Source: Armatimonadota bacterium
Lineage (GTDB): Bacteria; Armatimonadota; UBA5829; JAUSEB01
DNA: 64,000 bases
Assembly (NCBI GenBank): GCA_030649165.1
Contig: JAUSGG010000015.1
Span: 29,238-93,237, forward strand
Direction of reading: 5' to 3'
The notes under the pieces are model-generated. The model had not been told where the DNA came from and made no database searches. It saw nothing but the letters and a program-made list of their open reading frames with translations. Below, in pieces: positions 6,711-62,264 of this stretch (its first letter is position 1; the number at the start of each line of letters is the position of its first letter). A program made the position numbers and the translations under genes.

Positions 6711-6862
6711 CCCTCACAAACCCCATAAACCTCACCACCACGGCAAATCACTCATCATTCTCTTCCATTTCGGTCTTTCGTACTTTCGTGATTTCGGGAT
6801 AAAGGATTTCCTTTCCCGTTTTCCTTGCTTTCCTGTTTTCCTAGTTTCAACACCGTCAGGCG
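6711..6862 (-). promoter_or_regulatory. Purine-rich mRNA leader with at least 5 tandem GGA motifs (RGGAAARC repeats) between the activase stop and the 758-aa gene
   Basis: Minus-strand reading: AGGAAAACAGGAAAGCAAGGAAAACGGGAAAGGAAATCC ... GAAATGGAAGAG. Confidence 0.4.
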
Positions 6863-7765: not shown

Positions 7766-10221
7766 GCGACTCCCGCAAGACGCGTGGAGTCTGGATCGAG
7801 TCTCGTGATGATATCCTCCTGTATCGCGGGCGAGAGATCGAGAAAGTTCACGAAAGTGCCGTGGATGCGCATTATGTATATCCCGCTTGGGACCATTTCC
7901 TTCGGGTTTTCGAGAATCTTCCGCAGGCGTTTGGCAGTGTCCACGTTGAGATAAACGTAGTATCCTCCCCGTCGGTCGTCGCCGGTGTAACCGAACAGCG
8001 GGTTGATAACGTAATCCCGCAATCCGCGCCCAAATCTGTCCTCGCCGAACGCTTTTACCAGCGCGGCGTCGAGCCCGATGTGGCTTGCATACCCTCCGAG
8101 AAAATCCTCGTACGGTAGATTGCGCATACTCATTATCCTCACCGGCAAACCTTTCGTTGCCATCCCAGCGGTGGGATCGACGCCGTAGCCAAGCATCTTG
8201 CGAGCGCTCCGGCCGTCGGGAGTCGCTCCGGCCCAATAGCCGTACAGCAGATGGGTGCTCGGCGTGCTCCAGTCCGGCAGGAAAGGATTTCCGAACGAGT
8301 TCCGAAGCGCGTAGACTCGCGCCGAGACCTGTCGGGCAATTTCTCCCGCGTACGCATCGACGAACGCTTCGTCGTTTCCGTACTTAGGCGACTCCAGCAG
8401 CAAATCGCGCAATCCCTCGTGGCCCTCGAAATCCGCCAGCAGCGCTTTCGGCAGATCGGCTAAGGATTCGGGAGCGGTCGCGGAAGCATAGTCTATTGCC
8501 GCAAAGCTGTCCGCGACGATACTCAGCCCGTGGATGAGACATCCGGAAGCGTTGTATTTCGTCCCCTTTGCCGTGATGTCGCGCATGTCGCGGCCTGTAG
8601 TCAATCCCCCCATGAAGCAGGAGAGAAACGGAACGGGCAGGAGCGCAAGCGCTTCGGTACAGCCGTTGGCGGCCTTTGCCATACGCGGCACGAAGTAATC
8701 CAACTGCTTCCAAAAGGCCGATCTGAAGCGCTCCGGGTTACCAATGGGATTCCGCGGGTCAAGGCCCGTTTCCTCGTATGACAAACCGATCTTGCGCCCG
8801 CTGATCGCGCTCTTGCCGCCGTGAATCGTCAGTTCCAGGACCTTCGCCAGGTTCAGCCAACTGTTCGTGGTATTGCCCGACTCCTTGCCCATAATCAGCG
8901 GCTCCTGGCACCCGGCGATGCCGTAGAATGGCAGGTCTTCTTCCTCGATGCCCTTGCGCCGCAGGACTTCGAACATGCGGTCGTCGTTGAAGAAACTCGG
9001 AGTCAGGCTGCCCGGCGTCGTGAAAAACCGGCTCATAGCGTCGTAAAGGCGCTCCGGCGTGCCGGAATGCAGCTTGACGGAGAGCGACGGCTGCGGGTAG
9101 TTGCTCCGGAAGAAAGCGTCAAGGACAACGTAGGTCATCTCGCCAGTCAGATCGTGACCGTTCTCGCATCGCCCCCCCGCCATTATGTTCTGGCTGATCG
9201 CCCAATTGCGGTCCCCGACGTTGAAGAGCGCGAGAAGATGCCGCGTGAGCTGTACGGCAACTTCGTGGTCTACCGGCGCCTTATCGAAGAACGGCTGCAG
9301 AATCCTGTCCAGATTCCCCACACTGAACGCGTACGGGTTCGGAGCCTGCTCGATTGCCATCGCCATCCAAAGGAGGATGAACGACTGAATGGCTTCGTAC
9401 AGATCACGCGCCCCTTCGCGAAGGACACGTCCGCAGGTGGATGAGATACGCTGCAGCTCGCTTCGCCGCACCGGGTCCGCTTCAGTCTCGGCCATTTCCG
9501 CCGCCAGGGCCGAATACCGGTCCGCCAGATGAAGATCCCCCGACATCGCTATCACCGCGGCTTCGTAGAAGTCTCTCCTCTCTCCTTCCGCCGTGTTCGC
9601 CGCGGATTTGGCCCGTTCGATTAGATGAGTGAGCCCCTGCTCCATCGCCGGCCGGAAATCCGCCACCGTATGCCCGGTAACCTGCTCCACGAAGTATACG
9701 ACTTCCCCTGTCTCAAGTCCGGTTTCGGCGTAAACAGAGTTGAGCGCCTGAGCGTACTCCTCCTTCGCCCAAAAGTCTCGAACCCGTTGTATGCGCTCTT
9801 CCGTCAACCCCAATTCGGGCGCGGGCGTTATGTCGCCGTAAACCGCCATCGGGTCGCAATAGCCCGCGAAGGTCTCGACGCGAAACTCCGGGTTGATCAG
9901 CGCGTAGGTTCGGGCGAACGCATCGTCCTGAGTTCCCGCGAAGACTTCGTCGGGCCGGATCGAAAGTCGCATGCGTTTGCATACCGCCTCGAACAGCTTC
10001 GCCTGCGCGAGAACTCTTGGGAGCGAGACCCCTCCCCAGCCCTCCCCTGAAGAGGGAGGGAGCGCCCTTGCCCGTAAGCCCTCAAGCGCTTCCTTCCGGA
10101 TTTCCTGAATATAAAACCACCCGTCGAGGCGGACCATCTCCCGGTTCTGCTTCTGCACCGACAGAAGCTGCTCCGCCAAACGGTCCGGATCGAATCGAAT
10201 CTTCTCCTCCACAACAGCCAT
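7762..10221 (-). CDS. Glycyl radical enzyme (PFL/eliminase superfamily) with a divergent glycine-radical motif
   Basis: 819 aa. Cys loop GIAGCQEP (C-x-E, eliminase-type). C-terminal RIHGTFVNF...QEDIITR aligns to the canonical RVSGYAVRF...QQDVITR. N-terminal region resembles the GRE N-domain. Confidence 0.85.
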   Translation of the reverse strand: MAVVEEKIRFDPDRLAEQLLSVQKQNREMVRLDGWFYIQEIRKEALEGLRARALPPSSGEGWGGVSLPRVLAQAKLFEAVCKRMRLSIRPDEVFAGTQDDAFARTYALINPEFRVETFAGYCDPMAVYGDITPAPELGLTEERIQRVRDFWAKEEYAQALNSVYAETGLETGEVVYFVEQVTGHTVADFRPAMEQGLTHLIERAKSAANTAEGERRDFYEAAVIAMSGDLHLADRYSALAAEMAETEADPVRRSELQRISSTCGRVLREGARDLYEAIQSFILLWMAMAIEQAPNPYAFSVGNLDRILQPFFDKAPVDHEVAVQLTRHLLALFNVGDRNWAISQNIMAGGRCENGHDLTGEMTYVVLDAFFRSNYPQPSLSVKLHSGTPERLYDAMSRFFTTPGSLTPSFFNDDRMFEVLRRKGIEEEDLPFYGIAGCQEPLIMGKESGNTTNSWLNLAKVLELTIHGGKSAISGRKIGLSYEETGLDPRNPIGNPERFRSAFWKQLDYFVPRMAKAANGCTEALALLPVPFLSCFMGGLTTGRDMRDITAKGTKYNASGCLIHGLSIVADSFAAIDYASATAPESLADLPKALLADFEGHEGLRDLLLESPKYGNDEAFVDAYAGEIARQVSARVYALRNSFGNPFLPDWSTPSTHLLYGYWAGATPDGRSARKMLGYGVDPTAGMATKGLPVRIMSMRNLPYEDFLGGYASHIGLDAALVKAFGEDRFGRGLRDYVINPLFGYTGDDRRGGYYVYLNVDTAKRLRKILENPKEMVPSGIYIMRIHGTFVNFLDLSPAIQEDIITRLDPDSTRLAGVA

Positions 10222-10251
10222 TACCGCTCTCCTGTGATTCGCCTTAGAACC

Positions 10252-11682
10252 CTAAAACCCTTCCCCAAACAACGTCTTTCCCGCCGCCGTCCAATCCGCG
10301 TATACTCCGGTCGCGATTCCCGCCGCCAGGGCCGCGCCTACGGCGGCCTCTTCCGGGTGAGGCGGCATACGGAGCGTCATACCAACTTGTTTCTGTATCT
10401 CATTCCTCACCACGATATTTCTTCGCACCGCGTTCCCTGACCCGGAGCAGAATTTCGGAACGGCGCCCGCTCGCCGGGCGCAATCCAGAAACGCCGCCAA
10501 TTCGGCTACCATACCTTTGATAACCGCTCGCGTGAGATTTCCGACCGTGAAATTCGCGCCGCTCACATTTGCGATAGAGCCGCGCGCCCCCGGATCCAGC
10601 CGGCTGCCTTCGAACAGCGTCGACGCCGTCAGCACTCCGCACTCCTCGTCCGCATCCGCCGCCAGACGGTTCATCCGATCATAAAGCCTTTCCGTTCCAC
10701 CGGCATCGAATAAACTACTGCCAACGCCGGCGAAAAACTTCTCCAGGATTTCGTAAGCCCGTCCACCGCACAAACTCGCGCCCACGAGGAGCCATTGCCC
10801 GGCAACGAGGGGCCGGGTATCCAATCCATCCGCTCGCGCGAATCGCCCTATCGGCGCGGACATCTGGCCGCCCGTCCCCAGGCTCAACAAAACGCTTTCG
10901 CTCATAGAAGGAACGCTGCCCATGAACGACGCCTGGTTGTCACCCAGCGCCGCGGCGACCGGCGTTCCGTACGGCAAATCGATCCGTTGCGCGACATCCG
11001 GCAGCAGGCCGCCTGCCACTGATCCTGTCGGGACCACGCCGGGCAGCATTCCGTCCGGCAGACTCAGGGCGTCGAGGGCTTCAGGGAGCCAGCGCGAGCC
11101 GTGGCGGACGTCGAATATCCCCCAGCTCGCTGCGTCGGTCGGGTCGGTGACCGCGGCGCCACATAAAACGCGAACGATCAGATCGTGGATCGTTAGAGCC
11201 GTTGCGCCGGCAGGCAGGCAGCCTTCTTCCTTCATCCTGAGCAGAGTGACCGCTCCATAGCCGGTCGCCGGGCCGCAGCCGCTTGCTTTCAAAGCCTCGT
11301 CGCCAAGCCGATGGGCGAGCTCTTCCGCGTAACTCCGGCCGCTCGTGGAATACTCCGCGGTTCCGCGCCCATCCTGCCAGGTAACCAGAGGAGTAACCGG
11401 ATTAGCCGCGGAATCCACCACAACTACTCCGTGCATTTGGCCGGTGACGCCGATCCCAACGACCTCGGACTGCCGAATCTCCGGCCGGCTCGAAAGGCGG
11501 GCCAGCAGCGCCAGGGACTTGCCTGCAATCGAGCCGGCGTCCTGCTCCGCGACCCCTGGCGCGGACTCAACCCGCGAGTCGTTAGGCGCATCCTCGACGG
11601 CCATCATACGGCCACTCGACGAGTCCAAAGCCGCGGCGCATAGTTTCGTAGTGCCGATATCAAGGCCGATAAGAACACCCAT
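10252..11682 (-). CDS. FGGY-family carbohydrate kinase
   Basis: Start MGVLIGLDIGTTK matches the FGGY N-terminal motif. The product would be about 476 aa. The longer upstream ORF extension is low-complexity and likely non-coding. Confidence 0.8.
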   Translation of the reverse strand: MGVLIGLDIGTTKLCAAALDSSSGRMMAVEDAPNDSRVESAPGVAEQDAGSIAGKSLALLARLSSRPEIRQSEVVGIGVTGQMHGVVVVDSAANPVTPLVTWQDGRGTAEYSTSGRSYAEELAHRLGDEALKASGCGPATGYGAVTLLRMKEEGCLPAGATALTIHDLIVRVLCGAAVTDPTDAASWGIFDVRHGSRWLPEALDALSLPDGMLPGVVPTGSVAGGLLPDVAQRIDLPYGTPVAAALGDNQASFMGSVPSMSESVLLSLGTGGQMSAPIGRFARADGLDTRPLVAGQWLLVGASLCGGRAYEILEKFFAGVGSSLFDAGGTERLYDRMNRLAADADEECGVLTASTLFEGSRLDPGARGSIANVSGANFTVGNLTRAVIKGMVAELAAFLDCARRAGAVPKFCSGSGNAVRRNIVVRNEIQKQVGMTLRMPPHPEEAAVGAALAAGIATGVYADWTAAGKTLFGEGF

Positions 11683-12180: not shown

Positions 12181-13767
12181 TCACCCGTCACCCATGCGGC
12201 TTTGTCGCGTCCAGATCAGCCCGGCAAATGACAAGACGACGCACAGGTACGCGAACCAGTCGCCGAGACGCGTATAGGGCGCTTGCCTCGTCAACGGTAC
12301 TATGTCGCGGTAGATGATCTTCTTCCTGAAAATCCCTGCCGAGTCGAGGACCCGGCCCCACGGATCGATCACGCTGGATATGCCCGTGGCCGCGCAGCGC
12401 GCCAGGAACCGCCGGTTCTCGACCGCCCGCAGCACGGACATAGCGTGGTGCTGCTCGGCAGCGGCCGTGCGTTTGAACCAGGCGTCGTTCGTCATTACTA
12501 CTAACACGTTCGCGCCTCGCTTCGCGAGTTGGCGCGAGATTTGCGGGAATATCGACTCGAAACAGATCATCACGCCCAGGTTGCCGAAATCCGCCCGCAG
12601 CGGCAGATAACCGGGTCCGGGAGCATAGTCGAAGTCCCTTATCTTGTACCGCGCCAGGAACGGCAGCCACTTTCTGCCAAACACCACTTCGCCGAACGGA
12701 ACGAGGTGCGCCTTGTAGTACTTTCCCACAAGGTCTCCGTGAGGAGAAAACAGAAATGCCCCGTTATACTCCCTCATCGCGTCGCCGGACGGGCCGGGAA
12801 CGATGTCCGAAGCCCCTACAAGCAAGTAGACTCTTGCCGCGCTCGCCAGATAGCCCAGCAGCCGGCGCGGTCCGCCCGGGCGGGAGAACTGGTCGGGTAT
12901 GGCGGTCTCAGGCCAGATGACCAGATCCGGGCGACGCTTCAGGGTCTCGGATGTAATAGTCACGTATTCGGCAATGGTTCGCGTCCTGTGCTCGTCCCAG
13001 GTCTGCCGAGGACGGACCTCCTGGTCCACGTTGCCCTGTATGATGGCGACTCGGACCGGCTTCCCGCTCGCCCGCCCGGCGCACAGGGCGAACGCGCCCC
13101 AGATGATCGCCGCGCATATCGCCGCGGCCACAAGGCCGGCCTGCGCGAGGGCCGTCCGGCGCGACAGTAGCAATTCAGCCAATGCGACGTTCGCCGCCGC
13201 GATCAAAAATGCAAGGCCCCACGGCCCGGTCACGCTGACGACTTGAATAACAGGAAGGTAGTTGACCTGCGACTGCGCCAGATTGCCCCAAGTGAACCCG
13301 AGGAGTCCAAGCGATCTGAGCCACTCGAACGCCGTCCAGACGGACGGAACGACAAGCAGCCTGAACCACGCCGAACGAGCGCGGAACGCCGGATACGCGA
13401 CTGCACAGAAGCCGACGAAAAACAAGGCCTGAAACAGAGCGAGCAGGACCCACGGCGCGTACCCGAAGATGGTTATCCAGTAGAGCAAGCCGCCGAAGAA
13501 AACCGCGCCCATCAAGAGCGTCGCGGCCAGACTTGTCCTGAAGGAGGATTTGCTGTACACGATGAAGATCGGCGCAAGCGCGACCCACGCAAGCGGCCAC
13601 AGGTTGAAGGGCGCAAATGCCGCTATCAACCCCCCGGCGGAAATCAAAGCCAGAAAGTAAGCAAGCGCGTTCACAACCAATACCCCAAAGGCGCTATAAT
13701 GTGTAGGGTTATAAGGGTCGCGAGGTTGTAGGTTTGTAGGTTTATGAGGTCTGTGAGGTTTAGACAC
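12181..13767 (-). CDS. lnt: Apolipoprotein N-acyltransferase
   Basis: N-terminal polytopic membrane domain plus a CN-hydrolase domain (VAIIQGN...WPETA...ICFESIFP). The N-terminus of the listed ORF overlaps the tandem octamer repeat, so the true start may be downstream. Confidence 0.75.
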   Translation of the reverse strand: MSKPHRPHKPTNLQPRDPYNPTHYSAFGVLVVNALAYFLALISAGGLIAAFAPFNLWPLAWVALAPIFIVYSKSSFRTSLAATLLMGAVFFGGLLYWITIFGYAPWVLLALFQALFFVGFCAVAYPAFRARSAWFRLLVVPSVWTAFEWLRSLGLLGFTWGNLAQSQVNYLPVIQVVSVTGPWGLAFLIAAANVALAELLLSRRTALAQAGLVAAAICAAIIWGAFALCAGRASGKPVRVAIIQGNVDQEVRPRQTWDEHRTRTIAEYVTITSETLKRRPDLVIWPETAIPDQFSRPGGPRRLLGYLASAARVYLLVGASDIVPGPSGDAMREYNGAFLFSPHGDLVGKYYKAHLVPFGEVVFGRKWLPFLARYKIRDFDYAPGPGYLPLRADFGNLGVMICFESIFPQISRQLAKRGANVLVVMTNDAWFKRTAAAEQHHAMSVLRAVENRRFLARCAATGISSVIDPWGRVLDSAGIFRKKIIYRDIVPLTRQAPYTRLGDWFAYLCVVLSFAGLIWTRQSRMGDG

Positions 13768-13821
13768 TCCTCAATACCCCGAAAACCTTAGAACCCTGAA
13801 ACCCTAGAACCCTGTAACCCT
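13711..13821. repeat. Inverted pair of tandem octamer arrays (TAGGGTTA/GTAGGTTT ... AACCCTGA/AACCCTAG) in a divergent intergenic region
   Basis: Read directly from sequence. The G-rich array on the left faces a C-rich array on the right. Confidence 0.7.
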
Positions 13822-14499
13822 ATGAGTCGTTTTCCCACAATAATGCTTGCCGTGTTCGCCGCGCTCGCGCTCACTGGATGCGCCCGCGCCCCCGCGGGCG
13901 GACCCGGCGCCGCGCGCAGACTGGTCATCGAGATGCGCGTCGCGGGCGTCATCAATCCCGACTATTTCTATTACGTCGCAATCGACAATGATGGTGACCC
14001 GAACGACGGTCCCCAAGCGGTCGTCGGCCCGCCCTGGGGCAACGGCTGGGGCGCCGGGGCGATTACCCATTACGTTCAGTTCGACACCAGCCTTCCGCAG
14101 GGCGGTTACGGCCTATTCAGGATACCCGATGCCGGTCTTTTGGGCAAGGTTTACCTCGGCCCGCCTGTCAACTTCATCACCCCCGGCCCCAGCGGCAACA
14201 CGCTCAGGTTCACGCTGGATCTGGACGATCTCGTAATCCCTCCGCAGACGGATGGAAACCAGATACAGACGCTTGAGATAAACTTCATTGCCACGGACGT
14301 GGTCCCCACCGACCCATCCTTCGTGGGCCCGCGGCAATGGGACGCGCTCGGGGACGGGAGCAGCAACGCGTTCCTGCGACTGAACGTTACCCCGGGGCAG
14401 TTCATTTCTAATGGCACGGAAGGACTGGAGCCGGACGGCGACGTCTTCCACCCCGATTTGGACATAGTGGACTGGTCGATAGAAGTGCAGCAACTATAA
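13822..14499 (+). CDS. Lipoprotein (signal peptide with lipobox LTGC), function unknown
   Basis: MSRFPTIMLAVFAALALTGC. Confidence 0.7.
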   Translation: MSRFPTIMLAVFAALALTGCARAPAGGPGAARRLVIEMRVAGVINPDYFYYVAIDNDGDPNDGPQAVVGPPWGNGWGAGAITHYVQFDTSLPQGGYGLFRIPDAGLLGKVYLGPPVNFITPGPSGNTLRFTLDLDDLVIPPQTDGNQIQTLEINFIATDVVPTDPSFVGPRQWDALGDGSSNAFLRLNVTPGQFISNGTEGLEPDGDVFHPDLDIVDWSIEVQQL

Positions 14500-19381: not shown

Positions 19382-19419
19382 TAACTGCGCCCCAAGTCCG
19401 GTTATGCGCTTCGGCAGCG

Positions 19420-19460
19420 CCACTGCCGCTCTGCTACCGAAGGATCGTGGGCTTTCTCAA
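19420..19460. repeat. 40-bp structured repeat, copy 1 (CTTCGGCAGCGCCACTGCCGCTCTGCTACCGAAGGATCG); second copy at 38391
   Basis: Near-identical sequence at two intergenic sites. It contains nested inverted repeats (CCTTCGG...CCGAAGG and CGGCAG...CTGCCG). Confidence 0.6.
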
Positions 19461-19649
19461 TCCACTTCTTTCCTCCAGATCGGCTCTGTCCATCACACTT
19501 CAACCCTCACCCCTACCCTCTCCCTTCCAGGGAGAGGGGGTTTCCGCCTTCGACTCCTCCGACTCCCTCGACTCTTCCGCCCCCCACACAGGAAATTCCC
19601 CATCCAGGGTATAAGACAACACTAGCCAACCGGCCACTCGGAGGACTGG

Positions 19650-23189: not shown

Positions 23190-24568
23190 CCTCAAGAGAC
23201 CCAAATCACGCCCAAGACGAACTCGTAACCGCTATTACCGAAGGCAGCGTGTGGCATGTGGTCTGGAGGCTTTCCTGGCCGACAATGATCAGTCTCTTCC
23301 TTTCCACCGCGCAGTTGTGGATCAACACCATCTTTGTCGGCAAGCTCGGTAAGGAAGCGATTGCCGCCGTTGGATTGGGCGGCAACGCGCTCATGGTCAT
23401 ATTCTCTCTGACAATCGGCATAACCGCGGGCGGAACCGCGTTGGTGGCGAGGTTCACCGGGGCAAGATCGTACGATGAAGCCGCGGATGCCGCGAAACAA
23501 GCCATTATCCTCTCATTATTGTCATCGATCGTGGTCACAATGGTCTGCATGCCGCTTGCAAAACCCGTCATTGAATGGATGGGCGCCAGAGGTATCGTGG
23601 CCGATCTCGGCGCCGTGTATACGGTCCTCGGCGTTATTTCGACCACACCCTATTTCCTGTGGCTCGTGCTGAGCGCGGTCTTCCGCGGAATTGGCGATAT
23701 GCGCACGCCTTTGTATATCGCCGGCGTCGTAATAGCGCTCAACATTGTAGGGGACTGGGTACTGATTTTTGGCAAAGGCCCGTTTCCAAAGCTAGGCGTA
23801 CCGGGCGCGGCGTGGGCATTGATGATCTCACGAGCGGCAGGCACAGCCCTAAGCTTCTGGTGGCTGCTCCGATCGACTATGCGAAGATCGCTCGCCCCGC
23901 CGTGGACGCCGCGTCTTGACTGGTTCCTGCGTATTGCCAGAATCGGCGTCCCGGCGGTTATCCAAAGCTTGCTGTTCAGCCTCGCGTTCGTAGGGTTCTT
24001 CTGGGCTCTTGGCAAACTGCCAAACGTCGTGGACGCGCAGGCGGCCCTCGTCATCGGCCTCCGGGCTGAAGCCATCGCGTTCATGCCGGGATTTGCTTTT
24101 ATGACCGCGGCAACCTCTCTCGTAGGACAGAATCTCGGCGCGCAGCGGCTCGACAGGGCAGAGCGGGGCGCTTGGATCTGCGCCTGGCAAAGCCTTGCGG
24201 TGATGTCGGTGTTTACAGTTGTATACTTTGTCTTGGCGGAACCCTTCTCCCGCTTATTCACGAACGATCCGCAGGTGATAGCGCTGTCGGTTTCCTACCT
24301 AAGGATAAACGCGATCTCCGAGCCCTTCCTGGGATTCGCCATGGTCTTCACCGGGGCAATGCAGGGGGCGGGAGATACCAGAGACCCCACCATTGTCGCA
24401 TTCCTGACACTGTGGATTATCCGCCTGCCCCTGACCTACATCGCCGCAATAGTCTTCCACGGCGGCGCGACAGCGGCCTGGATTATCATGTCCGGCACAA
24501 CGATCCTTCGCGGCATCATAATGATCGGCCTCTTCAAACTCGGCAAGTGGAAGACCGTCCAGGTCTGA
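23186..24568 (+). CDS. MATE family efflux transporter
   Basis: 12-TM protein with MATE-like N-terminal motifs. Confidence 0.8.
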   Translation: MTSRDPNHAQDELVTAITEGSVWHVVWRLSWPTMISLFLSTAQLWINTIFVGKLGKEAIAAVGLGGNALMVIFSLTIGITAGGTALVARFTGARSYDEAADAAKQAIILSLLSSIVVTMVCMPLAKPVIEWMGARGIVADLGAVYTVLGVISTTPYFLWLVLSAVFRGIGDMRTPLYIAGVVIALNIVGDWVLIFGKGPFPKLGVPGAAWALMISRAAGTALSFWWLLRSTMRRSLAPPWTPRLDWFLRIARIGVPAVIQSLLFSLAFVGFFWALGKLPNVVDAQAALVIGLRAEAIAFMPGFAFMTAATSLVGQNLGAQRLDRAERGAWICAWQSLAVMSVFTVVYFVLAEPFSRLFTNDPQVIALSVSYLRINAISEPFLGFAMVFTGAMQGAGDTRDPTIVAFLTLWIIRLPLTYIAAIVFHGGATAAWIIMSGTTILRGIIMIGLFKLGKWKTVQV

Positions 24569-24660
24569 CCATCACAACCCTCACAAACCTACAAACCTAC
24601 AACCCTCACAAACCTACGAACCTACGAACCTACAAACCTATGACCCTATGAACCTATGGC
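24569..24660. repeat. Tandem octamer array (AAACCTAC/GAACCTAC/GACCCTAT, about 10 units)
   Basis: Read directly from sequence. Confidence 0.75.
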
Positions 24661-24661
24661 A

Positions 24662-24690
24662 TTGACACCACGCCGCTTCCGCAACATAAT
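24662..24690 (+). promoter_or_regulatory. Sigma70-type promoter TTGACA - 17 nt - CATAAT for cstA
   Basis: -35 at 24662-24667 and -10 at 24685-24690, about 50 nt upstream of the ATG. Confidence 0.55.
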
Positions 24691-24740: not shown

Positions 24741-26585
24741 ATGAACTCGCTGACTCTGCTCGCGATAACTCTTTGTCTTTTCGCGCTTGCATACAGATAT
24801 TACTCGGCGTTTTTGGCCGCGAAAGTGGCCATTCTCGATCCCAGGCGCCCAACCCCGGCCCATCAATTCCGTGACGGGCACGACTACCACCCGACCAACA
24901 AGTACGTCCTGTTCGGCCACCATTTCGCCGCCATAGCCGGGGCGGGGCCATTGATCGGACCCGTGCTGGCGGCGCAATACGGCTATCTTCCGGGCGCCCT
25001 ATGGATACTTGTCGGCTCGGTTTTCGCCGGCGCGGTGCACGACTACATCAGCCTTTACGCGTCTGTCAGGAACGGCGGCGAGTCGATCTCTAGAATCGCG
25101 CATAAGTACCTTGGCGGACCCGCGGGCTGGTGCACCGGAGTCGCCATTCTGTTCATCATAGTCGTCGCGTTGGCGGGTCTAGCGCTGGTCGTGGTCAATG
25201 CTCTCTCCGAAAGCGCGTGGGCCGTCTTCACCATCGCGTGCAGCATTCCGATAGCCTTCCTGATGGGCCAGTGGATGTATAAGATCAGGCCCGGCAAAGT
25301 CACGGAAGCGACGATCGTTGGCGTGATTCTGCTAATGGTCGGGGTCATAGCCGGAGGGCCGTTATCCGGCGTCAAGTGGTTCACCGAAGCCTTCACCTAC
25401 AAAGAATGGGTCCTAAAGCTGGCGCTTCCCACGTACGGGTTCATAGCCGCCGCGCTGCCCGTCTGGATGCTGCTCTGCCCGCGCGACTACCTAAGCTCGT
25501 ATATGAAGATCGGGACGGTCGCGCTGCTGGCGATCGGCATATTCGTGGTGCGGCCGGAACTGCAGTTTCCCGCGACGGCAAACCTCGGCGGCGGGCCGAT
25601 CATCCCTGGCCCGGTGTGGCCGTACGTCTGTCTGACCATCGCGTGCGGCGCCATATCCGGGTTCCACTCTCTGATCGGGTCGGGAACGACGCCCAAGATG
25701 ATCAACAACGAGTCGGACATCCGCTTCATCGGCTATGGCGCGATGCTCACCGAAGCGTTCGTGGGCATAATGGCCCTGATCGCGGCATGCGCGCTGCAAT
25801 TCCAGGACTATCTTGCGATTAACGTGAAGCCTGAGGTCTTCGGCCCCGCCCCGGCGCATTTGGCTGTGCTTGCAAGGCAGGTGGGAGAGGCGAGTCTTGC
25901 CGGTCGCACGGGCGGCAGCGTCACACTCGCGGTCGGCATGGCGCAGGTCTTCGGCGCAATACCCGGGATGAAGGCTCTGATCCCGTACTGGTATCACTTC
26001 GCGATTATGTTCGAGGCGCTGTTCATCCTGACCACCATCGACACGGGCACGCGTGTGGCCAGGTTCATTCTGCACGAGATCGTGCGGGGGCTCCATAGGC
26101 CGCACGTGACCAAGTCCTCGCTCCCCGCGACGATCGCGACCAGCGCGCTCGTCTCCTTCTTCTGGGGCTATCTGCTCTGGGGAGGCTCGGTCCAAACCAT
26201 TTGGCCGATGTTCGGCGTAGCCAATCAGCTCCTCGCCATAATCGCGCTTGCAATAGGCACGACGTTCATACTGCTGAAATCGGCGAAGAGGAGCTACGCG
26301 CTCCTGACTTTCGTCCCGTTCGTGTTTATGGCGGTGACGGTGCTGACGGCCGGGGTAAGGAATATCACCAGCATCTACCTGCCGATCATCCTGGGGCGTG
26401 TGCCGAATGCGGCTGATAAAGTCACGGCGATGGGCATAATGGCGACTTTGACCGCCATCATGATCGGCCTGACCGCCGTGGTCATCGTCGCAAGCATCCT
26501 GCGGTGGGGAGGAATCCTCACCAGCGGGCCACGGCAGCCCGAAGTGGAAGAACCCGAGCCGGAGCGGGAAGGCGTGTACGTTTAG
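24741..26585 (+). CDS. cstA: Carbon starvation protein A (peptide/pyruvate transporter family)
   Basis: Start MNSLTLLAI with RBS GAGGA. CstA N-terminal conservation. Confidence 0.85.
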   Translation: MNSLTLLAITLCLFALAYRYYSAFLAAKVAILDPRRPTPAHQFRDGHDYHPTNKYVLFGHHFAAIAGAGPLIGPVLAAQYGYLPGALWILVGSVFAGAVHDYISLYASVRNGGESISRIAHKYLGGPAGWCTGVAILFIIVVALAGLALVVVNALSESAWAVFTIACSIPIAFLMGQWMYKIRPGKVTEATIVGVILLMVGVIAGGPLSGVKWFTEAFTYKEWVLKLALPTYGFIAAALPVWMLLCPRDYLSSYMKIGTVALLAIGIFVVRPELQFPATANLGGGPIIPGPVWPYVCLTIACGAISGFHSLIGSGTTPKMINNESDIRFIGYGAMLTEAFVGIMALIAACALQFQDYLAINVKPEVFGPAPAHLAVLARQVGEASLAGRTGGSVTLAVGMAQVFGAIPGMKALIPYWYHFAIMFEALFILTTIDTGTRVARFILHEIVRGLHRPHVTKSSLPATIATSALVSFFWGYLLWGGSVQTIWPMFGVANQLLAIIALAIGTTFILLKSAKRSYALLTFVPFVFMAVTVLTAGVRNITSIYLPIILGRVPNAADKVTAMGIMATLTAIMIGLTAVVIVASILRWGGILTSGPRQPEVEEPEPEREGVYV

Positions 26586-26690
26586 GGTTGTGAGGTTTAT
26601 AAGGTTTATAAGGTTTATGAGGTTCCAGGGGGTCAAGGCTCCAGGGGCTTCGTTGGTTGGGCAAACCCTATAACCCTATAACCTTATAAC
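26586..26690. repeat. Inverted pair of tandem octamer arrays (GGTTTATA x3 ... AACCCTATAACCCTATAACC) in a convergent intergenic region
   Basis: Read directly from sequence. Confidence 0.7.
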
Positions 26691-28102: not shown

Positions 28103-28153
28103 AACATCCCCCTCCCCTATTCACCACGCTAAGACCCTACAACTCCACCAACC

Positions 28154-29179
28154 TCATAAGCCTACGGAACCCAACCTTACCTTCAACTGGTCGAGAACCA
28201 CGGCGAGCAGAATAACCCCGCCCTTGATCACCATCTGCCAGTACGTGGAAACGTCGGTTATGTCCAGCCCCACCGCGAGCACGCCGATCACCAGCGATCC
28301 CAGCAGCGTACCGGCGACGCTGCCCGTCCCGCCCATCAGGCTCGTGCCTCCCAGCACGACCGCCGCGATAGCGTCCATTTCGAACATCTGACCGGACTTT
28401 GGATCTCCGGCGCCAACGCGCGCCGCAAACATCAGACCACTCAGGCCGGCTAACAACCCGGCGATAGTATACACTCCCAGTTTCGTGTGTGCTACGTTGA
28501 CGCCGGACAGCCGCGCAGCTTCCTGATTCCCACCGATCGCGTACACGCGCCGGCCGAAATCGGTTTGCGTCAAAACGACATACCCCACGACAAATACCAG
28601 AATCGCCAGAGGCACGAGGGGCGGAATCGCCCTCAATATCGACGGCCCGCCCACTACATTAGTGAACGCTGTCGGCAGAGGACTGATCGGCACGGCGTCC
28701 GTGAACACCATCGAAAGACCCCTGGCGGACCCCATCATTGCCAGTGTGGCGATAAACGGCGTGACCCGGAGACGGGTGATGCAAAAGCCGTTGAACGCTC
28801 CAGCCGCCGCGCCGACGGCCATACTGACCATCCCGGCTACTAAGACCGCGACGACGAGTGGCCACGCCGTCACGGCTGGGCCCTGATGCATCCTTGAAAA
28901 CACCTGCAGAAGCGACATCGTCGACAGCACGCCCGCAAGAGAGAGGATCGAGCCGACGGAGAGGTCTATGCCTCCACTGATGATGACAAATGTCATCCCC
29001 ACGGCGATTATCGTGTTGATCGCGGTTTGCTGCAGTATGTTGACTATGTTGCTGCCGCTCAGGAACAGGCCGCGAGTGACGTAATCGAAGTACAGGCAGA
29101 GGAGAACAAAAAAGACCAGTATGCCGTAGGAAAGGAGCTTAACGAGCAGGTTTCTGACGCCGATGTCCGGTTTGCCCAC
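28154..29179 (-). CDS. Sugar ABC transporter permease (RbsC/branched-sugar family)
   Basis: Multi-TM permease, in an operon with the ATPase and the substrate-binding protein. Confidence 0.8.
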   Translation of the reverse strand: MGKPDIGVRNLLVKLLSYGILVFFVLLCLYFDYVTRGLFLSGSNIVNILQQTAINTIIAVGMTFVIISGGIDLSVGSILSLAGVLSTMSLLQVFSRMHQGPAVTAWPLVVAVLVAGMVSMAVGAAAGAFNGFCITRLRVTPFIATLAMMGSARGLSMVFTDAVPISPLPTAFTNVVGGPSILRAIPPLVPLAILVFVVGYVVLTQTDFGRRVYAIGGNQEAARLSGVNVAHTKLGVYTIAGLLAGLSGLMFAARVGAGDPKSGQMFEMDAIAAVVLGGTSLMGGTGSVAGTLLGSLVIGVLAVGLDITDVSTYWQMVIKGGVILLAVVLDQLKVRLGSVGL

Positions 29180-31662: not shown

Positions 31663-31753
31663 GTGGAACCTGTCTCGATTTGCAGTCTCAAACCGCAATC
31701 TTTTACTATCCCTCCAGGTAAGATACCTGGAGGGATACAATTTACAATCCGCC

Positions 31754-34543: not shown

Positions 34544-34756
34544 GGGTCTCCTTTCGCGGACTCCATCCGGGTCCGCATTGGTGAATCTTCTGAAATTCTA
34601 TGAACTGGCTCAGCAAAAGTCAAGGGAGGGGGCCGGAAGCGAGTGGAATGTGAGGAGTCGGGGGAGTCAGGAGAGTCGAGGGAGTAGACCGCGTCCCAGA
34701 ACGAACCCCTGAACCCCTAAGCCCCTATGACCCTGGAACCCTAACAACCTACAACC

Positions 34757-35734
34757 CTACCTCGGCACTTCCACCGCGTTCAGCAGCCTGCCGATCACCT
34801 TGTCCGGCGTCGCGCCCTCGATCTCCGCCTCCGGCCTCAAGATAAGCCTGTGCCTGAGAACCGGCGCGGCGAGCGATTTGACATCGTCCGGGATCACGTA
34901 ATCCCTTCCATTTATCGCGGCCAGGGCCTTCGATGTCAACAGCAGAGCAACAGACGCCCGCGGGCTCGCCCCGAGAATAAGGCTGCGGTCTTTGCGGGTC
35001 CTGCGCGTAATCTCCGCGATGTAGCGCACGATGGCTTCGTCAACACGGACAGCGGCCACCACCTTCCTGCACTGATTCAGGTCTTCCGCGCCGGCAATGC
35101 GCGCTATCCCGGCTTCCTCCAACCTCAGCGCCCGAAAGCCCCGGTTGTAGTTGTCCAGAATCCGTCGCTCTTCCTCCTCCGACGGGTAGTCCATTACGAT
35201 CTTCAGAAGAAACCGGTCCAACTGCGCCTCGGGAAGAGGATACGTCCCCTCGTATTCCACCGGATTCTGCGTCGCCAAAACGATGAAAAGGCCCGGCAGC
35301 GGATGCGGCTTTCCATCAACGGTGACGCGGCGTTCTTCCATTGCTTCCAGCAGCGCGGCCTGGGTCTTGGGCGGAGTCCGGTTGATCTCGTCGGCCAGAA
35401 GCACATTCGTGAAGACAGGACCGTGCCTGAAGCTGAATTCCCCTGAAGTCGAACTGTAAACGTTCGTTCCGATAACGTCGGACGGCATAAGGTCCGGCGT
35501 GAACTGTATCCTTTTGAAGTCCGCTCCTATCGTGAATGCGAGCGCCCGGACCAGGAGAGTCTTGGCGATGCCGGGAACGCCCTCTAGCAGAACGTGACCG
35601 TCCGCCAGCAGCGAGACCAAGGCCTGCTCCAACACTGCTTCCTGTCCAACGACGACCTTGGCGACCTCGCGCCTGATGTCCTCGACTATCCTGCAGGTCA
35701 GGCCCGCATCGGCCGGTTCCGAATTATCGGTCAA
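34757..35734 (-). CDS. MoxR-family AAA+ ATPase
   Basis: Walker A LLEGVPGIAKT. MoxR-type layout. Confidence 0.85.
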   Translation of the reverse strand: MTDNSEPADAGLTCRIVEDIRREVAKVVVGQEAVLEQALVSLLADGHVLLEGVPGIAKTLLVRALAFTIGADFKRIQFTPDLMPSDVIGTNVYSSTSGEFSFRHGPVFTNVLLADEINRTPPKTQAALLEAMEERRVTVDGKPHPLPGLFIVLATQNPVEYEGTYPLPEAQLDRFLLKIVMDYPSEEEERRILDNYNRGFRALRLEEAGIARIAGAEDLNQCRKVVAAVRVDEAIVRYIAEITRRTRKDRSLILGASPRASVALLLTSKALAAINGRDYVIPDDVKSLAAPVLRHRLILRPEAEIEGATPDKVIGRLLNAVEVPR

Positions 35735-38308: not shown

Positions 38309-38390
38309 AGCGCAGGAATTGCCGTGATGAAATAGCACAAGCCTAAGACGGCTGGGGAGCCCTCCCCAGCCTTGTTCCCTTGCCTCCTTC

Positions 38391-38430
38391 GGCAGCGACG
38401 CTGCCGCTCTGCTACCGAAGGATCGGAAAT
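38391..38430. repeat. 40-bp structured repeat, copy 2 (CTTCGGCAGCGACGCTGCCGCTCTGCTACCGAAGGATCG)
   Basis: Matches the copy at 19420 with 2 substitutions. Confidence 0.6.
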
Positions 38431-38520
38431 GCCGGGGGCTGGCTTCGGCTTCAAAGAACAAGCCGAAGCATCCGGCCTACGAACCTTAGAACCCTGGAAC
38501 CCTCATAAACCTCATAACCC

Positions 38521-39141
38521 TCACAACCCTTCCCCCTTCAGCTCCGCTATTGCCGCCATCACCCTTCTACCTATCTCTTCCAGCGCATCACGGTCGGAGC
38601 CGCGGTCGTACAGATCATCTATATGCACGGGTTTTCCAATTCTGACGCGAACTTTGGCAAAACGGAGAAACGGAGAGTGAGGAGGGAGGAGCTTATCACT
38701 GCCCAGGAGGGCCACGGGGATAATCGGCGCGCGCGATTTCATCGCTATCATGCTGATACCTAGCTCGGCCTTCAGCAGCGTGCCGCCCGGGCTGCGCGTG
38801 CCCTCGGGGAATATGCAGACGACTTCGCCGGTCTCCAGCAGGCTTATCGCCTGTTTCAACGCCGCACGGTCCGCGGTCGCCTGCTTCACCGGAAAGGCCC
38901 CGACAGCGCGTATCAGCGCCCCGAATATCGGAACCGCGAACAGTTCCGATTTGGCCATAAACCTTACCTGACGCCGCGACGCCGCTCCTACGACAGGCGG
39001 GTCCGCATAGCTGATGTGGTTGGGCGCAAGTACCACTCCGCCTGTGCGCGGAATATTACAGCGGCCGATCACTCGCCAACGGCCGAAGACCGGAAGTATT
39101 ATTGCTCTCAGCAGAAACCACGCTACGTAGTAGAGCAGCAA
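38521..39141 (-). CDS. plsC: 1-acyl-sn-glycerol-3-phosphate acyltransferase
   Basis: NHISYAD and FPEGTR motifs. Confidence 0.85.
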   Translation of the reverse strand: MLLYYVAWFLLRAIILPVFGRWRVIGRCNIPRTGGVVLAPNHISYADPPVVGAASRRQVRFMAKSELFAVPIFGALIRAVGAFPVKQATADRAALKQAISLLETGEVVCIFPEGTRSPGGTLLKAELGISMIAMKSRAPIIPVALLGSDKLLPPHSPFLRFAKVRVRIGKPVHIDDLYDRGSDRDALEEIGRRVMAAIAELKGEGL

Positions 39142-41718: not shown

Positions 41719-41809
41719 GCCAATACCTCGGTCAACGATACTATCCCTATTATCCCTGCTATCCTTGCTATCCCTCCAGGTACCCTACCTGGAGGACGCG
41801 CGCAAACGA

Positions 41810-42931: not shown

Positions 42932-43173
42932 GAACTCAGGAGAGATGACAAACAGATCGGGTCGTATCTGTGGTACGTGGGGGTTCAGGGAAGAACGTGG
43001 ATGAACACGGATAAACACGGATGGGGAAGGGAATTGTCAGTTGTTAGTTGTTGGTTGTTCAGGACTAACACATCGGAGCGTGTAACTGATACATGGGCAA
43101 ATCGTGCGGAAATAGTCAGAAACCTCATAAGAATCATCCGATTTCCTGCATCTCATGCTATAGAGGAACTCAA

Positions 43174-51205: not shown

Positions 51206-51402
51206 CCGCCCCACTCATCCTAACCGTCAACCGACAACTGTGAACAAAAAACTTCCCAAAAACTTCCCAAGTCTTGACAACCAAACGGTGAAAGAAGTAG
51301 TCTAACTATAATAGTTGCACCATTCACAGCCGTTCCCTCACGGCAACAGGCACGCGCATTTTCCCCGCGCAAAGCCATCGGATATAAGGAGAAGAGGAAG
51401 TC

Positions 51403-57159: not shown

Positions 57160-57265
57160 CCTTCATGGCGGGGGCGACCCCTTGCGGTCGCCCCTGCCGT
57201 TCGGGAAAGCCCGCTGGGGTTCCCCCTCCTCCCAGGAAACTCTGAGCTTTACTCTGAGCTTTCCG

Positions 57266-57312: not shown

Positions 57313-57398
57313 GGGGATGTGGCGGAATGGCAGACGCGCTTGGTTGAGGGCCAAGTGACCGCAAGGTCGTGGAGGTTCAACTCCTCTCATCCCCACCA
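57313..57398 (+). tRNA. tRNA-Leu (anticodon GAG), long variable arm, genomically encoded CCA
   Basis: Manual fold. Acceptor GGGGATG/CATCCCC, 3-bp D-stem, anticodon stem CTTGG/CCAAG, loop TTGAGGG, T-arm, A73, CCA. Confidence 0.85.
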
Positions 57399-60629: not shown

Positions 60630-60946
60630 CCCTTTCCTCCTCCTGCCCTGTTCGGGGCGTCAAGACACAAAAAGCCCGCTGTACTACAGGTCTGCTGACA
60701 GCAGCCCCGGTATTGCGCGGGCTCAAGCTCCTTATACTCCAAACCGTGCCTGCCTGTCAAGAATGACTTGACACAGGAAAGCGCGAAAATGTAACATACC
60801 AGCACAGGGTAACACGAACCAAGTAGGGTTATTGGGGTATCGTCTTCCCCACTTGGTTCATGCGGAAGGCGTCTGAAGCTTACCGCGCATGGTTACGAAT
60901 CAAGCAAGGTATTCTGTGCTCAGAAGGGTCAAGCGCGCCGGTGTTC

Positions 60947-61025
60947 GGCGGAATGGCAGACGCGCTTGGTTGAGGGCCAAGTGACCGCAAGGTCGTGGAG
61001 GTTCAACTCCTCTCATCCCCACCAA
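60947..61025 (+). repeat. 79-bp perfect direct repeat of the 3' part of tRNA-Leu(GAG) (pseudo-tRNA lacking the 5' acceptor strand); attR-like islet boundary
   Basis: Identical to 57321-57399. The 5' acceptor strand is replaced by a non-pairing sequence. Confidence 0.8.
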
Positions 61026-62137: not shown

Positions 62138-62188
62138 TCGTTCGTTGACAGTTGTCGGTTGTCGGTTGTCAGTTCTCAGTTGTCGGAC

Positions 62189-62222: not shown

Positions 62223-62264
62223 ACTCGTCCTCCGCCCCTCCGCCTCCCGGCCCGCCTCCCGGCC

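Follow-up and report, generated by a model that had tools for sequence, protein, structure and literature searches.

REP/BIME and REPIN sequences of Proteobacteria are abundant intergenic hairpin DNA, which lies mostly after genes or inside operons and is a target of IS110-family insertion; the REP unit is an imperfect palindrome of 20–40 nt with a conserved head and is mobilised by the RAYT transposase. The arms of eukaryotic Foldback transposons are built of short tandem repeats. Arrays of tandem 7- to 9-mers (STRR, LSSR) were first noticed decades ago, in a scatter of bacteria, and no accepted function for them was found in the literature searched. According to the summary in PMC4679880, it was Mrazek 2007 that defined the class of such repeats with units of 5–11 nt and put forward the idea that slippage makes them. 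The repeats of Xanthomonas and Nostoc follow the same rule of proximity to genes as is described below, and their length varies between related species (PMC4692102). The paired sites of Geobacter metallireducens fall into several unit classes in one genome, are absent from the sister species and, where tabulated, are found chiefly downstream of genes or in co-directional gaps; a function in IHF or HU binding is only hypothesised for them (PMC2700814). No report of such repeats in the Armatimonadota was found in the literature searched.

Here we surveyed a 64-kb stretch of DNA (the window) from the MAG of an uncultured member of the Armatimonadota. Its arrays are a new example of the 5–11-nt long-SSR class, which is known but functionally unexplained and takes in cyanobacterial STRR, the GGGNATC repeats of Xanthomonas/Nostoc and the paired octamer sites of G. 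metallireducens: their units stand head to tail in runs beyond chance, are biased to non-coding DNA and have a lineage-specific abundance.

Materials and methods

Arrays were tracked with TRF and with a chain test, in which at least three cores A[AC]CC[CT] had to follow each other at a spacing of 7–10 nt, the null being 100 dinucleotide-preserving shuffles. The relatives, with 74–84% protein identity, gave about 50 kb (49.5 kb) of sequence; orthologous spacers were compared in L202–L204 and L206–L209. The control was 689 kb of unselected loci from a metagenome CstA scan, in which the nearest CstA had 68% identity. The polarity counts come from a pattern-selected scan and refer to the matches listed only; they were made with crude ORF calls, and some loci contribute several arrays.

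The repeat family

The chain test found 8 arrays in the window, where the shuffles gave 0.08 on average and at most 1, and the two-unit pattern AAMCCTNNRAMCCT occurs 11 times where 0.01 is expected. All 8 arrays are non-coding, as are 157 of 166 in the wider sample (among the matches listed). TRF detected arrays at 24574–24658, 13722–13761, 13776–13822, 26593–26624, 26664–26690, 34704–34760 and 38476–38530. The arrays and the promoter elements beside them are the following.

6709–6736, plus strand: weak array of 3 units, beside the called start of ORF 4434–6710 (minus strand)
10244–10270, plus strand: array of two units, overlapping the FGGY kinase stop (minus strand, 10252)
13695–13700, plus strand: conserved TATAAT (−10-like) box of the lipoprotein gene; GCGCTATAAT is common to the window, L206 and L209
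13705–13762, minus strand: G-rich arm of the inverted pair in the lnt/lipoprotein divergent region, with AAMCCT units on the minus strand
13776–13821, plus strand: C-rich arm of the same pair, adjoining the ATG at 13822 of the lipoprotein gene
24576–24658, plus strand: flagged array of 10 units (RAMCCT plus 2–3 nt), C-rich on the plus strand, seen by TRF, chain test and sequence
24662–24690, plus strand: promoter-like site TTGACA-17-CATAAT of cstA, promoter scan score 11/12
26584–26633, minus strand: G-rich arm of the inverted pair in the convergent cstA/DUF1559 gap, with the cstA stop TAG (26583–26585) in its first unit
26664–26690, plus strand: C-rich arm of the same pair, containing the minus-strand DUF1559 stop (26684–26686)
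28103–28160, plus strand: degenerate member with irregular spacing, filling the 51-bp gap between two minus-strand genes
34704–34760, plus strand: C-rich array adjoining the moxR stop (minus strand, 34757)
38476–38530, plus strand: C-rich array overlapping the plsC stop (38521) and last codons (minus strand)

An earlier note on this DNA, which flagged the array upstream of cstA, had described an intergenic repeat family, and within the window the family is real and confined to intergenic DNA. Arrays are present at or near the positions it listed; those at 6709–6736, 10244–10270 and 28103–28160 are weak, and the other arrays above are robust. The degenerate member at 28103–28160 fails the chain test, yet ranks among the top C>G windows. 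To the left of the array at 34704–34760 stands another array of G-rich 9-mers (34654–34685), unrelated to the family.

The unit is a RAMCCT core with 2–3 variable bases, information content being high in the core and not in the linkers, and about half of the units are AAACCT, which gives only GG on the opposite strand. The period had been taken as constant; the cores in fact follow each other at 7 (4 times), 8 (21), 9 (8) or 10 nt (4). The suggestion of a spacer prone to replication slippage fared better, with signs of local duplication in the periods of 16, 25 and 33 which TRF gives beside 8 for the flagged array (24574–24658), and in the linkers, which are identical for 14% of neighbouring units but for 2.4% when different arrays are compared. 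By the chain test an array has 3–10 units, and a preference for four is absent.

The C-rich strand has 5.8% G. Per 100 nt it contains 0.9 start codons and no SD-like 4-mer (0), and the G-rich strand 5.8 start codons and 12.3 SD-like 4-mers. Because the C-rich strand is almost free of G, it has no Shine-Dalgarno-like motifs, almost no NTG starts and no structure. When the 64 kb are ranked by C>G, the arrays come out as the top windows.

Stop codons are adjoined or contained by five arrays (at cstA, the DUF1559 gene at 26684, moxR, plsC and the FGGY kinase). Arrays had been said to abut start codons in some places, and one does (13821/13822). Inverted pairs do exist but were said to be frequent, and they were found at only 2 of about 8 loci (13705–13821 and 26584–26690), the remaining loci being single arrays. 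In the window all single arrays are C-rich on the plus strand, a pattern that does not generalise beyond it.

The expectation that the inverted pairs would give long imperfect hairpins was borne out, with folding z from about −3 to −5. The foldback at 13705–13821 reaches −49 kcal/mol (z −4.6) as plus-strand RNA and −47.2 (z −5.1) as minus-strand RNA, and the cstA/DUF1559 pair has z of −3.0 and −2.5. Rfam gave only tRNAs at gathering score, and no match with E up to 1 across 6000–39500; a scan of the window for intrinsic terminators gave no enrichment, and none at the arrays.

At the lnt/lipoprotein locus the array at 13705–13762 overlaps coding sequence only through an over-extended lnt ORF, whose real start lies near 13674–13680 by Pfam and homologues. 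On the other side there is no Shine-Dalgarno sequence between the array at 13776–13821 and the ATG at 13822. The leader after the TATAAT box is about 44 nt long in the relatives and holds the entire 117-bp foldback in the window, so that, with the conserved box at 13695–13700, the foldback appears to be placed inside the 5′ UTR of the gene at 13822.

The array upstream of cstA

The flagged array begins 7 nt past the matE stop (24566–24568) and ends 3 nt ahead of the −35 box of cstA. The cstA start at 24741 is confirmed by a 100% identical protein of 614 aa (P0001), and the promoter is retained upstream of cstA in the relatives as TTGACA-17-CATAAT (L203) and TTGACA-17-CAAAAT (L202), neither with an array. 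The 92 nt of 24569–24660 hold A35 C37 G6 T14, and few 78-nt windows of the 64 kb have as extreme a C>G bias as the one found here, with 3 G.

A rut site, on which Rho loads, is a tract of untranslated RNA, at least about 60–80 nt long, with much C, little G and no structure. The flagged array has these properties, with 40% C, 6.5% G and a minimum free energy as RNA of −1.4 kcal/mol (z 0.0), starting 7 nt after the matE stop. From its sequence it looks like a Rho-loading tract set between the matE stop and a conserved cstA promoter, and it may act as one.

Polarity and placement

Arrays are placed by a rule in which the A/C-rich strand reads toward the nearest gene and the G/T-rich strand away from it. 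Among the matches listed, single arrays adjoin the gene that lies 5′ of their G-rich strand in 71 cases against 18 (p 1e-8), being G-sense beside stops (39:9) and C-sense beside starts (32:9), and the polarity in convergent gaps is 20:0. In the window 8 of 10 arrays fit by inspection of coordinates, the exceptions being the flagged array and the one at 6709–6736. Paired arrays always have the G-rich arm before the C-rich arm among the matches listed, 22:0 in bacterial loci and 9:0 in viral contigs. Full pairs fill the spacer, the G-rich arm lying a median of 6 bp from the left gene and the C-rich arm 20 bp from the right gene (matches listed). In the phage contig L213 foldbacks lie between co-transcribed late genes, and such foldbacks are thus compatible with read-through.

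A link to replication is not seen, array orientation against local GC skew being 27:27 among the matches listed. A simple sense-strand RNA motif was rejected, as the orientation against transcription direction is 41:34 among the matches listed. Chi-like or break-repair sequences and telomerase-like addition to 3′ ends would fit the polarity; they were set aside because several unrelated unit families share it.

Distribution in relatives and controls

Arrays of the AACCYT family number 8 per 64 kb in the window and 0.28 per 64 kb in the 689-kb control, and none was found in the about 50 kb of relatives, where gene order and promoters are retained. Arrays of any unit with period 6–12 number 16 per 64 kb in the window, 2 per 49.5 kb in the relatives and 23 per 689 kb in the unselected loci. 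A different 7-mer array occurs in L207, in the same 5′ UTR that holds the lipoprotein-gene foldback. The locus has been assembled only once more, in the Logan contigs L001 and L205, which are identical to the window.

The lack of arrays in the relatives together with the low control density points to a recent expansion, and by this comparison of sequences the arrays are a recent gain, specific to one Armatimonadota lineage. As they are absent where the cstA and lipoprotein promoters are conserved, they are dispensable for those promoters. The family had been called genome-specific. Its high density is specific to this lineage, but arrays of the type were also found in many phyla and viral contigs (pattern scan, matches listed). 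The term needs qualifying because the same architecture, built of other or similar units, occurs across phyla and was described before (PMC2700814, PMC4692102).

Discussion

The reading we favour, to which we give somewhat less than an even chance, is that of a lineage-specific long simple-sequence repeat that is made by slippage, filtered by its effects on expression, and active at the RNA level. Within untranslated DNA, arrays would be made and resized on the spot through replication slippage or tandem duplication, and would survive only in placements that the neighbouring genes tolerate. A transcript with both arms could form a long stem-loop across the spacer, either a REP-like intercistronic or 3′-end structure or, at the gene at 13822, a 5′-UTR hairpin; a transcript with the C-rich arm only would carry an unstructured, C-rich and G-poor tract of 50–90 nt with the signature of Rho loading. 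The flagged array would in this way end the prs-pth-matE transcript just ahead of the independently conserved cstA promoter. Slippage alone is opposed by the one core that about ten loci share, which would need a common seed, an expansion bias specific to the core, selection for a factor, or copying between loci. A single selective argument is opposed by the convergent gaps, which are still polar (20:0, matches listed), and by the C-rich leaders at starts, which should attract Rho.

The conserved 6-nt core, the free linkers and the same core at about ten loci would also suit binding sites on double-stranded DNA, selected in their core for a lineage-specific nucleoid-associated protein or global regulator that polymerises head to tail, as ribbon-helix-helix proteins do on 7–8-bp repeats; omega-protein heptads are bound in an orientation-dependent manner. 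A −35 box lies 3 bp beyond the end of one array, a divergent promoter region is overlain by another, the paired arrays of G. metallireducens are annotated as putative global-regulator sites (PMC2700814), and deletion of heptamer repeats in Nostoc is reported to alter reporter output (bioRxiv 10.1101/2022.06.06.494920). We nevertheless hold such a protein to be unlikely. Within single arrays the spacing ranges over 7–10 nt, which speaks against rigid phasing of a cooperative DNA-binding array and differs from the phasing of ribbon-helix-helix operators and centromeres (MetJ, omega, ParG). The arrays occupy every type of gap and most adjoin stops, not promoters, and in the part of the window ORFs that was scanned they flank matE, cstA, moxR, plsC, lnt and others and do not keep to a cognate promoter. 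They are missing at orthologous conserved promoters, and one protein cannot explain the same polarity across phyla with unrelated units. No candidate protein could be tied to the protein-binding array that the earlier note had proposed. Quadruplex or i-motif elements that act near gene ends as four-stranded DNA or RNA, like the GGGNATC repeats of Xanthomonas and Nostoc, would account for the asymmetry of G-rich and C-rich strands and share the ORF-proximity rule of published G4 repeats (PMC4692102). A canonical motif (G3N1-7 x4) occurs on the complement at 13794–13820 and 34706–34733; these are, however, the only 2 of 9 arrays with four G3 runs and short loops, about half of the units offer only GG, and on the count of 2 of 9 a quadruplex was rejected as a general property. 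With 3–10 units there is also no sign of a four-unit preference, and paired arms can form a more stable duplex hairpin; we hold this reading to be very improbable.

That the arrays are arms of non-autonomous foldback or MITE-like elements, with single arrays as decayed halves and a polarity set by the mobilising enzyme, would fit the invariant order of the pairs (31:0 among the matches listed) and the sudden appearance in one lineage. A degenerate partner arm is hidden beside about 25–30% of the "single" arrays, one phage contig has foldbacks that are near-identical including the spacer (97%), a spacer motif is common to two copies in one Saprospiraceae MAG, and IS110 and IS481 elements lie beside Geobacter pairs. 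In the window, however, the spacers of the two pairs are unrelated, the linkers differ from array to array, target-site duplications are not visible and no transposase is linked to the arrays; adjacency to gene ends is near base-pair precise, which untargeted insertion would not give, and we consider such elements fairly improbable. Rapid turnover and the lack of conservation in relatives would fit neutral slippage junk, whose polarity would be a by-product of ORF-end calling or mutation bias, the more so as C-rich arrays have no stops or starts and let ORF callers run through them (lnt). The polarity is, however, strongest at stops, where it is independent of start calling (39:9, and 20:0 in convergent gaps, matches listed), is tied neither to GC skew (27:27) nor to transcription direction (41:34; matches listed), and was found independently with curated annotation (PMC4692102), so that junk is quite improbable. 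Rather unlikely is that the order of the arms and the rule of the C-rich strand toward the gene mark widespread directional insulators and not a filter on junk, or else that the polarity was left behind by an enzyme with strand specificity which makes or mobilises the foldbacks. The G-then-C order holds for 31 of 31 pairs across many phyla and phages (matches listed) and also in the published Geobacter table. If insulators, then RNA entering a gene by read-through or antisense transcription would first meet a start-free, Rho-loading tract, and RNA leaving a gene would carry the G-rich arm, which would mask the C-rich arm when read-through is wanted.

The window gives a clean natural experiment, with an about 30-fold increase of arrays in one lineage and relatives that have the genes and promoters but lack the arrays. 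As the order of the arms is strict and, like the rule of proximity to genes, holds across phyla and phages, repeat function becomes directly testable; the functional role given to the arrays here is inferred. There is also a warning for annotation, as ORF callers misplace starts at C-rich arrays, lnt being an example, because these arrays contain no stop codons and are run through.

Comparison with known systems

The telomere-like character that had been suggested is limited to a hexamer: the core AACCCT is the C-strand telomere hexamer, and the G-arm-then-C-arm order has the geometry of a head-to-head telomere fusion. Unlike telomeres, the arrays are internal to a bacterial contig and away from replicon ends, 25–90 bp long, made of degenerate 8–9-nt units and without a telomerase context. 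The telomere reading was rejected as the units of 7–10 nt have 2–3 free positions and are not of the near-perfect 6–7-nt TTAGGG/TTTAGGG type, the arrays are intergenic and internal to the 64-kb window, which is part of a contig of 111,761 bp, and G-arm before C-arm is the opposite of the ends of a linear element. REP/BIME and REPIN sequences work alike as intergenic hairpin DNA, and their IS110 insertion parallels the Geobacter data; unlike the REP palindromes, the arms of the arrays are tandem octamers.

In the summary that PMC4679880 gives of them, the LSSR, including cyanobacterial STRR, are like the window arrays in having tandem 7–9-nt units in runs longer than chance, mostly non-coding, and in being sporadic across phyla with few dominant units per genome and slippage as the proposed origin. 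Compared with the LSSR and STRR of that summary, the window has an Armatimonadota host and units of 8–9 nt, in which a 6-nt core is fixed and the linkers are free to vary. The TAACTGA heptamers of marine Beggiatoaceae (MacGregor 2015, PMC4679880) are intergenic and many stand at starts, replacing the ribosome-binding site, as does the array at 13776–13821 before the ATG at 13822; nearly all of them are direct and upstream of starts, whereas the window arrays are mostly at stops and include some inverted pairs.

The paired sites of G. metallireducens (Aklujkar et al. 2009, PMC2700814) are like the two paired loci of the window in being inverted pairs of 3–5 tandem 7–9-mers with a variable spacer, and their class 3 table has the same polarity, the pyrimidine-rich strand reading outward. 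They differ in unit sequence and in the adjacent IS110/IS481 insertions, which have no counterpart in the window. In the heptamer repeats GGGNATC and GGGGA(C/T)T, known from Xanthomonas and Nostoc (Rehm et al. 2015, PMC4692102), each unit carries a G3-4 run, four units are preferred and G4 formation was shown in vitro, where the window has G4 motifs in 2 of 9 arrays and no such preference. These repeats share with the window the strand asymmetry, the intergenic location, the variable copy number and the occasional inverted copies, and their proximity rule (nearer to the ORF that lies 5′ of the G-rich strand, in any ORF orientation) is reproduced here at 71:18 among the matches listed.

Distribution of the arrays in the window

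The AAMCCT repeat family is real and statistically solid in the window, which has a G+C of about 59% and encodes, among others, DUF1559 prepilin-like proteins, CstA, MatE, Lnt and MoxR. The flagged array (24576-24658, + strand) reads, unit by unit, CAACCCTCAC AAACCTAC AAACCTAC AACCCTCAC AAACCTAC GAACCTAC GAACCTAC AAACCTAT GACCCTAT GAACCTAT, and it was recovered by TRF along with six others listed in the earlier note; of that list, 6711-6750, 10241-10275 and 28103-28160 are weak. Requiring at least three cores A[AC]CC[CT] spaced 7-10 nt gives 8 arrays in the window, whereas 100 shuffles that preserve dinucleotides average 0.08; the two-unit pattern was counted 11 times where 0.01 would be expected.

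The intergenic location proposed earlier was borne out, as all window arrays are non-coding; 13705-13762 is only an apparent exception, lying inside an over-extended lnt ORF which overruns into it because the C-rich strand is stop-free in that frame. The longest - strand ORF of lnt (12181-13767) crosses the C-rich array, yielding VSKPHRPHKPTNLQPRDPYNPT, and the true start is near 13674-13680. Stop-free arrays can mislead start-codon calling in this way.

The flagged array begins 7 nt past the matE stop and ends 3 nt upstream of TTGACA(24662)-17-CATAAT, one of only two 11/12 promoter matches within 13-29 kb. Abutment of start codons, described before for some arrays, was seen for one (13821/13822, sense strand C-rich); five others contain or abut the stop codons of cstA, the DUF1559 gene at 26684, moxR, plsC and the FGGY kinase gene, with the sense strand of the gene G-rich.

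Unit structure and folding

When the units are aligned, the R-A-M-C-C-T core is informative and the next 2-3 bases are uninformative. Core-to-core spacing is 7 (4 times), 8 (21), 9 (8) or 10 (4) nt, so that the constant periodicity claimed earlier does not hold. The C-rich strand is composed of A 36%, C 41%, G 6% and T 17%; start codons per 100 nt number 0.9 on it, 5.8 on the G-rich strand and 3.6 on average in the window, and the corresponding values for Shine-Dalgarno-like 4-mers are 0, 12.3 and 2.2. Among all 78-nt windows of the 64 kb, these arrays and other short tandem repeats show the strongest excess of C over G. The linker is identical in 14% of adjacent units against 2.4% of units from different arrays, and the flagged array gives additional TRF periods of 16, 25 and 33, which are marks of local block duplication.

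Both inverted pairs (foldbacks of G-rich arm, spacer and C-rich arm) are predicted to fold as long imperfect hairpins, as had been suggested, with -49 and -47 kcal/mol (z -4.6 and -5.1) at 13705-13821 and -43 and -30 kcal/mol (z -3.0 and -2.5) at 26584-26690. The flagged single array is unstructured as RNA (-1.4 kcal/mol, z 0.0). An Rfam search of the arrays matched no family.

Other repeats and side features

The following intergenic tandem arrays of the window are unrelated to AAMCCT.

Tandem units of other families
6812-6847, unit TTTCCTGT
19547-19579, unit CCTCCGACT
34654-34685, unit GGAGTCGGG
41741-41775, unit CTATCCCTG
43034-43059, unit TTGTTAG
62151-62186, unit GTTGTCG

Over all families TRF gave 16 intergenic arrays of period 6-12, a density about 8 times that of control loci. 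Two-copy tandem 11-12-mers (AAAAACTTCCC, ACTCTGAGCTTT, CCGCCTCCCGGC) at 51247-51270, 57239-57262 and 62240-62264 are each followed at once by a TTGACA box, and two of the boxes are the apparent promoters of tRNA-Leu and tRNA-Val. The tRNA-Leu(GAG) genes at 57313-57398 and 60937-61024, 3.6 kb apart, share an identical 79-nt stretch; ARAGORN calls both copies and Rfam, at gathering score, only the first. A 39-nt hairpin-forming dispersed repeat, CTTCGGCAGCG..CTGCTACCGAAGGATCG, is present at 19409-19447 and 38387-38425 (95% identical), and each copy shares its intergenic region with a C-rich tandem array. A second hairpin family, CCTCCAGGTA-n-TACCTGGAGG, occurs at 31703-31733, at 41765-41795 and, in the relative's locus L207, at about 10780-10830; since it is present there, where AAMCCT arrays are absent, it predates the array expansion. 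In the product of the gene at 43093-44607, regions 2 and 4 of an ECF-type sigma factor are joined to a bifunctional-nuclease (BFN) domain at the C-terminus.

Comparison with relatives

No arrays were found around cstA in three relatives (L202, L203 and L204; CstA 82-84% identity), of which L203 keeps the promoter TTGACA-17-CATAAT and L202 has TTGACA-17-CAAAAT. In the relatives' lipoprotein loci (L206, L207 and L209; lipoprotein 74-80% identity) the genes for radical-SAM, PFL, FGGY kinase and lnt still follow one another in this order, with divergent lipoprotein and nadE, and some 33 kb contain no AAMCCT array. The window shares the box GCGCTATAAT (13691-13700) with L206 and L209, where a leader of some 44 nt follows it; in the window it is followed by the whole 117-bp G-rich arm, spacer and C-rich arm, up to the ATG. 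The 13705-13821 foldback is therefore a recent gain, within the inferred 5′ UTR. In the same lipoprotein leader L207 carries a distinct 7-mer array (GCTGAYA x4.4, 9954-9984), so that the position, and not the sequence, is re-used there; L207 also has a 9-mer array upstream of nadE.

Across 689 kb of unselected metagenome CstA loci the count of AAMCCT arrays was 3, a rate of 0.28 per 64 kb, and array density is, on these sequences, lineage-specific. The earlier idea of a genome-specific family is kept for density and given up for the units, as AAMCCT-like arrays occur in many phyla.

Polarity and placement across phyla and viruses

The pattern scan of species-representative genomes gave at least 120 loci in many phyla, the matches listed including Desulfobacterota, Bacteroidota, Acidobacteriota, Gemmatimonadota, a Chthonomonadaceae MAG and others, and the scan of viral contigs gave 100 listed loci. 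The samples were selected for AAMCCT-like units, some loci contribute several arrays and genes were called by a crude ORF/GC3 heuristic, so the pattern-scan counts are approximate.

Among the matches listed, 157/166 arrays are intergenic, and neighbours at most 250 bp apart are G-then-C in 22 cases and C-then-G in 0 for genome loci, and 9:0 for viral contigs; in the window the G-rich array is always on the left (4/4 cases, with non-complementary units in 2). Full pairs among the matches listed span the gap from gene to gene (median 6 bp from left gene to G-rich arm and 20 bp from C-rich arm to right gene), 9/11 of them between co-directional genes, and for about a quarter of 'single' arrays a degenerate arm of complementary sequence lies 3′ of the G-rich strand. 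When single arrays among these matches are oriented C-rich on top, the right-hand gene is nearer by 71:18 (p 1e-8; medians 26 and 139 bp), a proximity rule to which arrays of other units at these loci conform by 47:20. The sense strand, again among the matches listed, is G-rich beside stops (39:9; convergent gaps 20:0) and C-rich beside starts (32:9), and array orientation has no relation to local GC skew (27:27) or net transcription direction (41:34).

In the late-gene operon of the phage contig L213 (terminase, portal, protease, Mu gpT-like head, tail tube), several foldbacks at 4700-5470 and 11440-11620, between co-directional structural genes, are 97% identical including the spacer. This suggests copying between sites within that phage genome.

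Proposed mechanism and alternatives

The reading which we prefer, tentatively and a little short of an even chance, is that arrays are made and resized by tandem duplication or slippage and filtered by their effects on neighbouring genes. Block duplication and turnover among relatives suggest the origin by duplication or slippage. The G/T-rich strand carries many SD-like motifs and NTG codons; the A/C-rich strand is nearly free of both and does not fold, which fits the observation that it is the strand that reads into the neighbouring gene. By the textbook account, Rho loads onto unstructured RNA of about 60-80 nt that is rich in C and poor in G. The C-rich arm of a G-then-C foldback would be paired as soon as transcribed, and with the arms swapped it would at first be exposed, which would explain the single tolerated order inside operons. 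For the flagged array, which stands alone and puts its C-rich strand into the matE transcript, the likely effect would be termination by Rho immediately ahead of the cstA promoter.

This reading has weak points. The slippage-prone spacer class proposed earlier agrees with the duplication marks, but the core is common to about 10 loci, for which slippage alone is insufficient. Convergent gaps show equally strict polarity, C-rich leaders beside starts should likewise attract Rho, and the proximity rule fails for the flagged array and for 6709-6736. Occupation of the arrays by a duplex-binding regulator is unlikely, and the arrays, with their variable core spacing, are probably not a phased protein-binding array. 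A mobile foldback element is quite unlikely; pure junk is improbable, and a quadruplex element is very improbable, with a canonical motif on the G-rich strand in only 2/9 arrays. The family, called telomere-like earlier, is not telomeric.

Comparison with known repeat systems

In the paired sites of Geobacter metallireducens, two arrays of 3-5 tandem 7-9-mers face each other as inverted copies across a spacer of variable length; G. sulfurreducens has none, some adjoin IS110 or IS481 elements, and in the class 3 table their array polarity is the same as that of the window family (PMC2700814). The GGGNATC repeats of Xanthomonas and Nostoc are intergenic, vary in length between related species and lie 'almost exclusively' nearer the 5′ neighbouring ORF, whatever its orientation (Rehm et al., PMC4692102). 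TAACTGA repeats were described by MacGregor (PMC4679880), in whose summary the Mrazek 2007 LSSR survey proposed slippage, and a Nostoc preprint reports that heptamer repeats alter reporter output (bioRxiv 10.1101/2022.06.06.494920). The kind of repeat is already known, and the window family adds to it a member from a new phylum, Armatimonadota; it is of use chiefly because it offers the old question on such repeats a clean case in which a strict polarity rule holds across phyla.
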